A DNA stretch of 64,000 nucleotides from Chrysomallon squamiferum (taxonomy: Eukaryota; Animalia; Mollusca), in assembly GCA_012295275.1 (NCBI GenBank), contig CM022665.1, forward strand, positions 28,210,001 through 28,274,000, written 5' to 3'. Position 1 is the first letter of the stretch, and every line of letters starts with the position of its first letter. Made by a program: the position numbers and the translations under genes. The notes beneath the pieces were generated by a model. It did not search any database, had not been told where the DNA came from, and was given only the letters and a program-made list of their open reading frames with translations. Shown here one piece after another: positions 19,664 to 28,709 of this stretch.

Positions 19664-19765
19664 TTAAAGTTCGGTCTCTGCAATTGTGTCTGTCAGTCTG
19701 TACACAATTTCTGCTGACGTAGGTGGCGTGTCGCTAAGCCAACAAGACTGGGCCGTCTCCAGCAA
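19664..19765 (-). CDS. Terminal exon of the 7TM-pseudokinase gene: kinase subdomain XI-like segment plus PDZ-binding tail
   Basis: Acceptor tttag, then LLETAQSCWLSDTPPTSAEIVYRLTDTIAETEL*. This resembles the CW..P..RPT..EI signature of TK/TKL kinases. Confidence 0.82.
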   Translation of the reverse strand: MLETAQSCWLSDTPPTSAEIVYRLTDTIAETEL

Positions 19766-22700
19766 CTAAAATAAAGACAAGAAAGTACATATGCTGCAAC
19801 AGGCTAATAATGGTATTGTAGGTTTAGAAATTTAAAAAAAGAAGAAAAAAAAAAAGAAAGAAAGGAAAGTTATAATAATAATCATAATAAAAAATAAGAG
19901 AGAGAGAGAGAAGAGAGAGAGAGAGAGAGAGAGAGAGAGAGAGAGAGAGAGAGAGAGAGAGAGAGAATAAGTTTTCTGCATTTTATTAGTCCATTTATCT
20001 ACATCGCTGCAGGTTCACTTTAACAACAATAATTATAAATTCATATAATTAAATATCTGGAAAATAATAGCAGCAGCAGCAGTAACAACAACAACAACAA
20101 CAACAAACAAACAAACAAACAAAACGAAATGAAAGAAGTGAAGTAATTAATACATTTTGTATAGGCATACCTAAAAACAAGTACTATTATTAAATAATAT
20201 TTATTATTTCTCCATTATAATGTAATTTGGTTTGTAAAGTAAATAAATGTTAGATTAGTTATTTTCTAAAAATAGCAAATCTTTAACCGTAAAGAATGTT
20301 TTACCTGATTTCCTATCGAACCAAATTTCCCAGCATGCTGCAGCTTTGATTTCATCACCTCGAAGTTGTTAGTCCTTGCCGGCAACAACTCGTCAAATTT
20401 TAAAATTGATATTTTAGATGTCAGAAGTCTGCAATATTTGACATGATCTGTACTCACTCCTTTCAGAAGAGGAACATTTACAGTATTTGAAGTATTTGAA
20501 GTCACTTTTCCTTCAGATAAAAATTTCGGTTGTTGCATAGATCTCTCATCCAGCCCGAACACTGGAATATCGTTAATGGAATGATTTTGCTGTGTGAACA
20601 TTTTGTCAATAGCCATTTCGGCATCTACAAGAGGATATTTTGAATATGTTGTGTCTGTCTGGTGAAATCCGTATTCACTGTGCTGTTCATGTTCGTGTTC
20701 CTGTTTAGACACCGACTGATTTCTTTTCGAGTCTACAATTACCCTTGATTCATCTGCCGATGACTCGCCCGTTATTTCGTCAGGTAACTCACGTATTATT
20801 TCATCTAGAACATCTGCATTCGATCTTTTTCTTTTCGGCTGCTTACGGTTGGAATGGCAGTCGCTAATTGATTCATATTCATTGAACCTGTTGATTGCAC
20901 CCTTTTGTGAATAACGAACGTCTGTGTTACAGGAAGTGTCCGTGTCACTGTTAGCAAAAGGTACCTGTGCCTCAAGACCTTGGAATAGAATTTCGTCATC
21001 CGAATCCCATTCTTCCTCTTCATTATCATCCTCCTCAATGATCTCTGCTGTTGACTCCATCACCGAGTCTCGGTCGGTTTCGGAATGTTCCGAAGCGGAG
21101 ACAACCGAAACACGAAGAGGCACACCACGGGTTACTAATTCTTTATAACGCTTCATGTTTCGTTTCCACTGAATTCTCTCTTTAGAACGAGTTTTTCGCA
21201 CAGTTTTTATATTCATATTCTTCCCATTCGTAGGCCTTCCTGAAGGGTACTGTTGGTCGGGGCCAATTATATCTCCTTCGTTCTGCATAAAGTTATCTCT
21301 CTGTGGAGAGAAATCATATGATGAGAACGACTCGTTACCAGATTGTGGATAGATTGGCTTCGTATGCATTCCTTCAGTGGGAGTAACAGAATACTGACAA
21401 CTACATGTCTCGTCTGTAGGACAGGAACACGTCTGGTCATCGATCTCCAGCTCTTGCAGTGACCCTTCCTCACTTTTCACAGAGCCACTGTCAAAACCGC
21501 TGTCAATTTTCACATCCTTTGTAGGACTTACTTTAATTTTGTGCACAGGTATGTCATATTCGTGGTCATGTTCCGTGACATATCCATCCTGATTGCAGTG
21601 TTCTGATGAATAAGCTTGCGAAGACAACGACGTTAATTCTCCACTAGTAAGAGACGTGGTTTGCTGTTTACGTGGATTGTTGCGGAAGTAGCTACTGAAG
21701 CTGTCATTACTGCTAAAACTGGAAAATTTCCCACCATTATTCTCATTAGGCTGAGCATGCGTTTCTGGACGATGAACTTGATCCTTAGATTCACAGGGCG
21801 TTTCGCCCCGATTGAGAACATCGCCTTCGTTTTCATTTTTCACGTTACTTTGTCGTTTTTGAGATGCGTATTTCTGTTCTACCGCAGCTGCTGACTTTCC
21901 CCTGTCTTTATCTATTGCAGTAGATGGACGCTGCAGCTGTCGAGTAAGAATATTTCTGGCCTTGTTTTTCTTAGCATTCGCATTTTGTGCTGTCTGAGGT
22001 CTGCCAGCAGTTTGCGCCGTTGCAGGACGAGAGGAAATGCTTCTGGAAGATGATGGCACCGATGTATATGGTCTCGATTGCGTATTGACTTGCTCATTAA
22101 CAGATATACCTGATACATAACGCTGCTTTTGTGAATTGTTCGTTTGCACAGATGCATTACTTTTTGTTTGTGAAGACACGTTGTTTTTCATTTGCAAAGA
22201 TTGGTTACTTTTCATTTGTACAGCCATTTTATCTGACCTCAACTGAGTTTTATTCGCATCTAATATCTGTCCTCTGGAAACTGATCTACGTTCTTTTTCT
22301 GTCAATAGATCTCTAAGCATTGGTTTCATCCGTTCGTCGTAGCATTCGATAAGGTATTGTTTTCTTTGTGCTTCTCTAGCCAACCACAATTCTTTCAGAC
22401 TAGGACCAGACGTCTCGGTGTCATCTGCCATTCCAGGTAAAATTTCATTCACTGCCTCTGGAGATTTTGCTAACGAAGAGCAACCTCTTCTGTCATTATT
22501 TACAGCCTGACCATCCATTTTCGACATACTGTACACTGAACGATGATCTGAAGGACATTTATGCATTGGTTTTCCTTCACATACCTGTCCATACGAAGCA
22601 TATGTACCTATATCAAGTGAAACATATTCAGGATCATCTTTTAAAGATGGCGTCTTTCTGGAAGGTTTTGATGCACCCATCTTTCCATAGGTTCTTTCTA

Positions 22701-28700: not shown

Positions 28701-28709
28701 AGACGACAT
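19664..28709 (-). CDS. 7TM (LGR/GRL101-like, no ectodomain) fused to a split pseudokinase domain; predicted 1554 aa
   Basis: Five GT-AG exons with matching phases: 28709-27768 (942 nt, phase 0), 25194-24953 (242 nt, phase 2), 24488-24296 (193 nt, phase 0), 23490-20305 (3186 nt, phase 0) and 19765-19664 (102 nt including TAA). Exon 1 has seven hydrophobic segments and ends at a consensus donor (GAG|GTGAGT). Exons 2-5 carry kinase subdomains in the correct order. Confidence 0.85.
20305..23490 (-). CDS. Exon 4 (3186 nt) of the 7TM-pseudokinase gene: DFG-like motif, alphaF, then a long disordered insert
   Basis: Uninterrupted 1062 codons. Starts RAAIGDFENAQ...PDIRAFALVTLEII (subdomains VII and IX), then ~950 aa of S/N/E/Q-rich sequence. 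Ends at the donor CAG|GTAA. Confidence 0.9.
23620..23801. repeat. (GTGTA)n pentanucleotide microsatellite with degenerate flank
   Basis: Directly visible, in intron 3 of the 7TM-pseudokinase gene. Confidence 0.95.
24000..24192. repeat. (TG)n and long (GA)n microsatellites
   Basis: Directly visible. Similar (GA/CT)n tracts occur at ~19900, 26690, 40655, 40790, 45655 and 50825. Confidence 0.95.
24296..25194 (-). CDS. Exons 2-3 of the 7TM-pseudokinase gene: kinase N-lobe, hinge and catalytic loop
   Basis: GLLKVY (beta3 Lys), WAQEIVIL (alphaC Glu), LICMEWTSSGTLRDFL (hinge/alphaD), IIHDIAEGLACLHEQNILHQNLTSATVYL (alphaE and catalytic loop, with HQN in place of HRD). Confidence 0.87.
27768..28709 (-). 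CDS. Exon 1 of the 7TM-pseudokinase gene: rhodopsin-class 7TM bundle resembling LGR/relaxin-receptor/GRL101 TM domains
   Basis: Short N-terminus with an N-I-T sequon. TM1 GSLAN; TM3 VCHGAGFF; TM4 LSFIPFLPVSYF; ECL2 VCFPI; TM5 GYGGMIVFLL; TM6 LLVEQTIWIGI; TM7 QWIVIIAF. An in-frame TAA (28727-28725) lies upstream of the ATG. Confidence 0.85.

Follow-up and report, generated by a model that had tools for sequence, protein, structure and literature searches.

The window analyzed here is a stretch of 64,000 nucleotides (nt) from the mollusc Chrysomallon squamiferum (GenBank assembly GCA_012295275.1, contig CM022665.1, positions 28,210,001 to 28,274,000); positions below are those within the window. 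Between 28709 and 19664, its minus strand holds a gene that joins a seven-transmembrane (7TM) domain folded like GPCRs (G protein-coupled receptors) to a domain with a protein-kinase fold. Our analyses confirm that this fusion is real and forms one spliced chain, indicate from the sequence that the kinase module is a pseudokinase with a split C-lobe, and place the protein in a family found in at least seven bilaterian phyla with a relative in Cnidaria.

The gene and its transcript

Five coding exons on the minus strand (28709-27768, 25194-24953, 24488-24296, 23490-20305 and 19765-19664) have GT/AG ends and agreeing phases (0, 2, 0, 0), and joined they yield 4665 nt, that is, 1554 amino acids (aa) and a stop, with no internal stop. 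The initial annotation, made from the DNA letters, had proposed just such an in-frame spliced protein of 1554 aa, and the exon phases and the RNA contigs that join both halves bear it out. The parts of the gene are as follows.

28710..28939, minus: 5' untranslated part of exon 1, with five in-frame stops (from RNA contigs)
27768..28709, minus: coding exon 1, aa 1-314, with a short N-terminus carrying an N-glycosylation sequon, seven helices, a pair of Cys residues following helix 7/8, and strand beta-1 of the kinase
27837..28679, minus: 7TM domain, aa 11-291, GPCR fold; C3.25 and the Cys of extracellular loop 2 (ECL2) present, D2.50, DRY, CWxP and NPxxY gone
25195..27767, minus: intron 1, 2573 nt, GT..AG, spliced out in three RNA runs
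24953..25194, minus: exon 2, putative pseudokinase N-lobe lacking the Gly loop, with a family-specific insert following a conserved Trp
25125-25123, minus: beta-3 Lys338, exon 2
25086-25084, minus: alpha-C Glu351, exon 2
24296..24488, minus: exon 3, with hinge, alpha-D, alpha-E and catalytic loop
24343-24335, minus: HQN replacing HRD, exon 3
20305..23490, minus: exon 4, encoding alpha-F (Asp497) and the long insert, and then the first part of the C-terminal piece
23463-23455, minus: DFE replacing DFG, exon 4
20491..23316, minus: probably disordered insert of about 940 aa that separates alpha-F from the remainder of the C-lobe; Ser, Glu, Asn and Gln abound in it, and short islands of conservation occur within it
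22720..22731, minus: YEEI motif in the insert
21487..21504, minus: DSGFDS motif in the insert
19691..20490, minus: conserved C-terminal piece, aa 1460-1546, spanning intron 4 and ending in alpha-H/alpha-I
19664..19765, minus: exon 5, with alpha-H/alpha-I and C-terminal ETEL; its joint is placed by homology

The stretch is covered by five sequencing runs, four of them recorded as RNA and all four belonging to one study; contigs of three of these (X1, X2 and X3, representing three samples) and of the remaining run, X5, were compared with positions 24200-29300. Intron 1 and intron 2 (464 nt) are removed with GT..AG ends in contigs of X1, X2 and X3, so that the junction 27768^25194, the point at which the initial annotation could be checked, is spliced in all three, and RNA depth within the introns is near zero. 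In X2 a contig of 4805 nt, and in X3 one of 5456 nt, carries both the 7TM and the kinase exons, and loose contig ends at exon 3 continue into the start of exon 4 in X1, X2 and X3. In X5, whose kind is unrecorded, neither joint is present, and the 7TM exon also falls outside the coverage of that run. The exon 4-5 joint (20305^19765) rests on homology, exon 5 matching the C-terminus of the orthologue from Gigantopelta at 91% over 33 aa (tblastn, E 5e-13), together with the X2 and X3 contigs, which reach 231 and 281 nt further than the length of exon 4 would take them, although this may also reflect retention of intron 4.

The RNA-covered leader has five in-frame stops upstream of the ATG, and this isoform is therefore without an ectodomain; the contigs hold a further 187-382 nt of 5' sequence absent from 24200-29300, an upstream non-coding exon. 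At the other end of exon 1, the kinase strand beta-1 (LKKLELLKIE) is encoded together with the 7TM domain, so intron 1 falls within the kinase domain. The kinase exon had initially been described as beginning at its acceptor; that acceptor is indeed used in RNA, but the domain has already begun in the preceding exon.

Could two neighboring genes have been wrongly joined, by the reader of the sequence or by gene predictors? Many database entries consist of the 7TM exon only or the long exon only, as this explanation would have it, yet the 7TM-only entries that we inspected, many of them unnamed, mostly stop shortly past the beta-1-like stretch, as would be expected if single exons had been called on DNA. 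With the joint spliced in RNA contigs of three runs, which refutes the explanation for intron 1, with beta-1 inside the 7TM exon, and with the fusion repeated in six phyla besides Mollusca, we consider its probability negligible.

The seven-helix domain and the split pseudokinase

Exon 1 encodes seven hydrophobic helices, and an AlphaFold model of the 7TM domain built with 28 sequences likewise has seven helices (mean predicted local distance difference test score, pLDDT, 80). In a Foldseek search with this model the best rows are all class A receptors, and VIA-align places a spider rhodopsin (Z 21.8, root-mean-square deviation [rmsd] 3.5, 273 residues aligned) and a Caenorhabditis elegans LGR (Z 21.5) at the top, GPCRs overall scoring Z 19-22 with an rmsd of 3-4 Å over about 250 residues. 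Fold alone does not settle the GPCR class; it is sequence that places the domain in class A. Searches with the window protein and with molluscan sequences find little: the window's 7TM has no 7tm_1 match at E<=1 in Pfam, the 7TM exon and five family proteins (P0001-P0005) match no GPCR family in Pfam, phmmer of the window protein against PDB returns nothing significant (best E 0.35), a mollusc-only 7TM profile has no match in PDB, and an Atlas look-up of the 7TM yields borderline 7TM clusters only. Deuterostome members and family-wide profiles do better. A Diadema member matches 7tm_1 at E 2e-6, below the Pfam cut-off, the amphioxus member finds RXFP1 first (E 1.5e-5), and so does the full family profile (E 7e-22). 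With a profile restricted to the 7TM (18 rows), RXFP1 comes first (1e-16), before C. elegans LGR, TSHR, NPY1R, LHCGR, LGR4 and rhodopsin in that order, and the best 60 matches are by name only class A receptors, bar one 'nascent chain'. The domain thus appears closest to RXFP1 and other LGRs, and the rhodopsin-class assignment first made for it holds at the level of family profiles.

The residues that the domain has kept and lost form a distinct pattern. Compared with canonical LGRs, the 25 ectodomain-less members retain C3.25 and the ECL2 Cys in 24 rows each, and Asp2.50 and Arg3.50 of DRY in none; CWxP and NPxxY are partly retained in deuterostomes and gone in molluscs, the window protein included. 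Across phyla, the seven helices, the cysteines linking transmembrane helix 3 (TM3) and ECL2, Pro4.60 and the C-x-P of ECL2 are retained. In a quick 7TM tree, 19 family rows fall on one side of a branch opposite four LGRs (approximate likelihood ratio test, SH-aLRT, 95); six of the 25 rows of the motif table were omitted from this tree, and its outgroup consisted of the four LGRs with no other class A receptor.

Downstream of the helices, PK_Tyr_Ser-Thr is matched above the Pfam cut-off in exon 3, and thus of the two Pfam matches that were to be looked for in the window protein one is found and the other, 7tm_1, is not. The kinase entry is matched by 12 of 12 family members examined, hhalign gives a kinase-fold probability of 99.8%, and the best matches of solved structure are kinases of the tyrosine-kinase-like (TKL) and tyrosine kinase (TK) groups, LIMK, RAF and LRRK2. 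Residues were scored in 42 proteins of the family, the window protein being among the 33 that are molluscan or mollusc-like, with nine others; duplicate isoforms, the fragments P0032-P0034 and the truncated P0016 and P0023 were set aside. One of the 42, that of Saccoglossus, has the catalytic Asp; DFG is present in none (DFE in 36), and GxGxxG in none. APE is missing in the alignments, as is its partner Arg before alpha-I. Retained are the beta-3 Lys (31 of 32 molluscan rows), the alpha-C Glu (32 of 32) and the Asp of DFx, a set with which nucleotide binding would be possible. By these residues the module is a pseudokinase, and since its catalytic motifs are lost, signaling by phosphotransfer is unlikely; the earlier proposal that the receptor signals through its attached kinase-fold module is to be refined accordingly, and the accompanying proposal that it does not act through G proteins draws on motif loss.

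The pseudokinase is the best-conserved part of the protein. Between the window protein and that of Gigantopelta aegis, identity reaches 96% in this domain, 76% in the 7TM domain and 78% across the whole 7TM exon; with bivalves and Aplysia it amounts to 63-65% in the pseudokinase, 35-37% in the 7TM domain and 22-24% in the insert. Such conservation, the retained Lys, Glu and DFx Asp, and the HND sequence of the Saccoglossus protein could be read as signs of an active, unconventional kinase, and hence of a true receptor kinase. We regard this as quite improbable for the family, given the catalytic Asp missing from 41 of 42 members, the absence of Gly loop and DFG, and the absence of APE and of its partner Arg. 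In a tree of kinase domains, 18 family members, Nematostella included, stand on one side of a 100/100 branch opposite 30 ordinary kinases. An AlphaFold model of the 7TM domain with the N-terminal kinase part (12 sequences) had pLDDT <50 over most of the kinase and was not used.

What becomes of the C-lobe? The initial annotation had kinase subdomains II-XI following one another in order; the homology to the kinase fold stands, but the catalytic motifs are lost and some 940 aa intervene between alpha-F and alpha-H. Across the family this insert measures 316-1344 aa (943 in the window), is of low complexity and rich in Ser, Glu, Asn and Gln, and beyond it the last 100 residues are conserved again. 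Aligned with alpha-H/alpha-I of a profile built from 30 ordinary kinases among the matches, the C-terminal end scores 35.5 (E 4e-5), a value reached by none of 60 column shuffles (best 21.5) and by none of 10 insert windows (best 16.2). We infer that the two C-lobe pieces reassemble into one fold; a prediction of these pieces as a complex gave no answer (score 0.01).

Within the insert, DSGF[DE] recurs in 33 of 33 molluscan rows and DSGxx[ST] in 36 of 42 overall (shuffle mean 3.1), Y[DE][DE][IVL] in 17 of 33 molluscan and none of nine other rows, and 38 of 42 members end in S/T-x-L/V/I, the window protein in ETEL; these counts come from related sequences, which are not independent. We take DSGFDS to be a phosphodegron of the beta-TrCP type, YEEI an SH2-type docking site and ETEL a class I PDZ-type end. 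RVxF motifs in the insert are fewer than expected by chance. Further molluscan islands lie at aa 1050-1083 and 1240-1251, namely SFSSNDS (14 of 33), TSGELTSLSS (22 of 33) and a basic helix ending in GVPL (27 of 33), with no known match.

Comparable proteins are the HxN-type pseudokinases and pseudokinase scaffolds, among them JAK JH2, HER3, MLKL, the guanylyl-cyclase homology domain, and PEAK1/Pragmin. With these the family shares a catalytic Asp replaced mostly by Asn, a preserved Lys-Glu pair, and a long disordered region with docking motifs. We know of none that is fused to a 7TM domain or has a C-lobe split by hundreds of residues.

Range and origin of the family

The linkage of both halves, which the initial annotation proposed to look for in other animals, is conserved: fused members occur across phyla. 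Among longer proteins, the 7TM exon has five matches in 6093 candidates, all gastropod, 1515-1858 aa long and of identical layout. The kinase region has 34 matches in 1166 candidates, the named ones from gastropods and bivalves; 31 span at least 89% of the query, and 30 of these carry the 7TM sequence in the same chain, the remaining one being a partial model. A profile of 12 sequences covering 7TM and kinase parts matched 1105 entries at E<=0.001; we classified the 150 best. Molluscan members named there include those of Argonauta and Biomphalaria, and fused members from nine non-molluscan genera are among these 150 (Lingula, Owenia, Watersipora, Ptychodera, Saccoglossus, Antedon, Acanthaster, two Diadema species and Branchiostoma lanceolatum), aligning with the molluscan proteins across 7TM, kinase part and C-terminal piece. 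The fusion is found in about 30 molluscs and in six further phyla, with a lamp shell, a segmented worm, hemichordates, echinoderms and amphioxus among its bearers. No ecdysozoan, tunicate or vertebrate member is among 30 proteins looked up, a result that covers the best 150 of 1105 matches, many of them unnamed, and does not show absence. A third, word-indexed search gave no new fused member and just two LGRs. One Lingula entry in MetaClust joins an upstream multi-pass membrane protein to a family member and is probably a gene-model fusion.

The cnidarian relative, LOC5517652 of Nematostella (3282 aa), begins with MAM, CUB, LDLa, C-type lectin and leucine-rich repeat (LRR) domains, followed by a canonical 7tm_1 domain (117 bits) that keeps Arg3.50 and Asp2.50 and has DRF, CWMP and NPVLY. 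Its tail domain reaches 90 bits with the family's kinase profile as against 16 with an ordinary one, shares the family's Trp-plus-insert in the N-lobe, has HNA in place of HRD, and ends within about 50 residues past alpha-F, so that the kinase is unsplit; in the tree it joins the family at 100/100, on a long branch. The LDLa and LRR ectodomain seen here is absent from the window protein, and its orthologues have short N-termini. The form with ectodomain and unsplit kinase is likely ancestral, and it would appear that a type-C LGR, akin to RXFP and GRL101, gained the pseudokinase before the cnidarian-bilaterian split, with loss of ectodomain and activation motifs and growth of the insert following later in bilaterians.

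In Lytechinus pictus, a GRL101-like receptor (P0200) shows after its canonical 7TM, at residues 1110-1171, a faint likeness to alpha-E through beta-8 (7 bits with the family's kinase profile), a lead rather than evidence. Other GRL101-like receptors may carry kinase remnants.

Signaling and relation to known receptors

We propose that the protein is a receptor-scaffold, in which a signal is passed on by altered docking of partners and not by phosphorylation or canonical G-protein coupling, and we rate this proposal as slightly better than even. It draws on the missing ectodomain, DRY motif and catalytic base, on the strong conservation of the pseudokinase, and on the docking-type motifs in loop and C-terminus. 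The 7TM domain would sit in the plasma membrane with its N-terminus outside and its C-terminus inside, a signal would change the docking of partners on the pseudokinase, the long loop and the PDZ-type tail, and the degron and tyrosine sites of the loop, phosphorylated by other kinases, could provide control. We further speculate, as something possible but on balance doubtful, that the family constitutes an ancient and so far undescribed animal receptor class older than the cnidarian-bilaterian split, in which an LGR-derived 7TM sensor is wired to a nucleotide-binding pseudokinase switch. Bilaterians would then have lost ectodomain and G-protein switches and grown the C-lobe loop, up to 1300 residues, as a platform, and a ligand in the 7TM pocket would control the scaffold with neither G protein nor catalysis.

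Several observations weigh against these proposals. GPCRs that lack DRY can still couple, and CWxP and NPxxY are not entirely gone from deuterostome members. Class C and F receptors match the 7TM model at Z about 20, within about 2 Z units of class A, and NPY1R ranks amid the LGRs in the profile search. Long branches and a thin outgroup in the 7TM tree mean that the order of events is not proven, and the kinase tree, also with long branches, has an outgroup of 30 ordinary kinases with no animal pseudokinases. The Saccoglossus kowalevskii member, with HND and a downstream Asn the only one of 42 to have the catalytic Asp, is a candidate for residual activity, and not every member need be dead. 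Finally, all RNA support comes from one study.

It is conceivable that the protein is instead an orphan receptor coupled to G proteins, its pseudokinase tail merely tuning trafficking, desensitization or turnover. The GPCR fold with a helix 8 region and Cys pair, the disulfide cysteines retained in 24 of 25 rows, the DRF, CWMP and NPVLY of the Nematostella relative, and degron- and PDZ-type motifs, which we take to be typical trafficking signals, all fit such a receptor. Arg3.50 and Asp2.50 are missing from 25 of 25 rows, NPxxY is lost in molluscs, the molluscan kinase fold begins about 10 residues past the Cys pair and could crowd the G-protein site, and the pseudokinase is under stronger selection than the 7TM domain; this explanation is in our view unlikely. 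Small weight also goes to a 7TM domain without ligand binding that anchors a constitutive pseudokinase scaffold in the membrane or holds it there as a dimer partner, for instance of a ligand-binding LGR. The lost ectodomain and activation switches would suit an anchor, as would the fast evolution of the 7TM domain, with its long branches and 35-37% identity across molluscan classes, but the conservation across phyla of seven helices, TM3-ECL2 cysteines, Pro4.60 and ECL2 C-x-P seems to go beyond an anchor's needs.

How does the proposed receptor-scaffold relate to known systems? Type-C LGRs (RXFP1, RXFP2 and Lymnaea GRL101) provide the best 7TM match (RXFP1, E 1e-16 to 7e-22), and the unfused proteins that come closest to the family are GRL101-like ones and LGRs; unlike them, the snail protein has no LDLa or LRR ectodomain, DRY or D2.50, and it has a cytoplasmic part of 1200 aa with a putative pseudokinase. 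The available parts of two LGR papers (PMC4079206, PMC8286064) and of a study of amphioxus GPCRs (PMC2246102) mention no kinase-like tail. Fusions of 7TM domains with cytoplasmic kinase folds in one chain are described elsewhere, and in layout the snail protein is likewise a GPCR-kinase 'bigram'. Van den Hoogen et al. 2018 (PMC5784254) reported GPCR-TKLs from oomycetes and amoebozoans only and held that metazoans have few or no GPCR-enzyme fusions, and GPCR-TKL/K are described from choanoflagellates and GPCR-TK from choanoflagellates and sponges (PMC12716839). As far as the portions of both papers available to us go, they report no such fusions in animals beyond sponges. The family described here differs in its LGR-like class A 7TM, its degenerate and split kinase, and its range across Bilateria and Cnidaria, and the LGR-like 7TM argues for an origin separate from the GPCR-TKL/TK families. 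The Atlas clusters that come nearest by features (0.86-0.90) contain kinase proteins of oomycetes and ciliates, 584-675 aa long, a lead only.

The initial annotation knew of no characterized animal 7TM-kinase fusion of the rhodopsin class; we found no named family, but besides the sponge GPCR-TKs, sea-urchin GPCR-type kinases ('GPCR-TMKs') are given one sentence in the accessible part of Yin et al. 2023 (PMC10463195). Two proteins in the alignments of that paper (XP_030855453.1 and XP_041469348.1) by eye hardly differ from the Diadema member and are hence orthologues. The 'kinase' slice aligned there spans TM3 to the hinge, so the tyrosine-kinase placement does not rest on the kinase core, and the pseudokinase nature, the split, the LGR origin and the wider range go unmentioned in that part. 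A description of the family was not found in the literature searched, including by locus and accession identifiers, a search whose coverage omits most subscription papers. The family has been overlooked because both domains lie at or under Pfam cut-offs and the entries are named 'uncharacterized', 'RXFP2' (the automatically named amphioxus member) or 'LRRK2'.

Surveys hold GPCR-enzyme fusions to be rare or absent from animals other than sponges (PMC5784254, PMC12716839); here a GPCR fused to a pseudokinase is conserved across seven or more bilaterian phyla and has a cnidarian relative. The family offers a natural test of G-protein-independent 7TM signaling, of the way in which a kinase fold accommodates a very large C-lobe insertion, and of how the ectodomain that binds the ligand is lost from an LGR. 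Workable animals with members include Aplysia, Biomphalaria, oysters, sea urchins, amphioxus and Nematostella.

Upstream of the receptor and on the same strand, the window holds a multi-exon gene (39839-45612, minus) encoding an EF-hand and LRRs of the ribonuclease-inhibitor type (Pfam EF-hand, LRR_6), which presumably resembles LRRC74. This gene was considered as the missing ectodomain and rejected, as stops precede the ATG in the receptor transcript. Exons with a BACK domain lie at 6688-7579 on the plus strand and presumably belong to a BTB/BACK gene of the BTBD9 kind. At 60849-61250 on the minus strand, a last exon has a weak bZIP match (E 0.014) and perhaps encodes part of an ATF/Fos-like factor.

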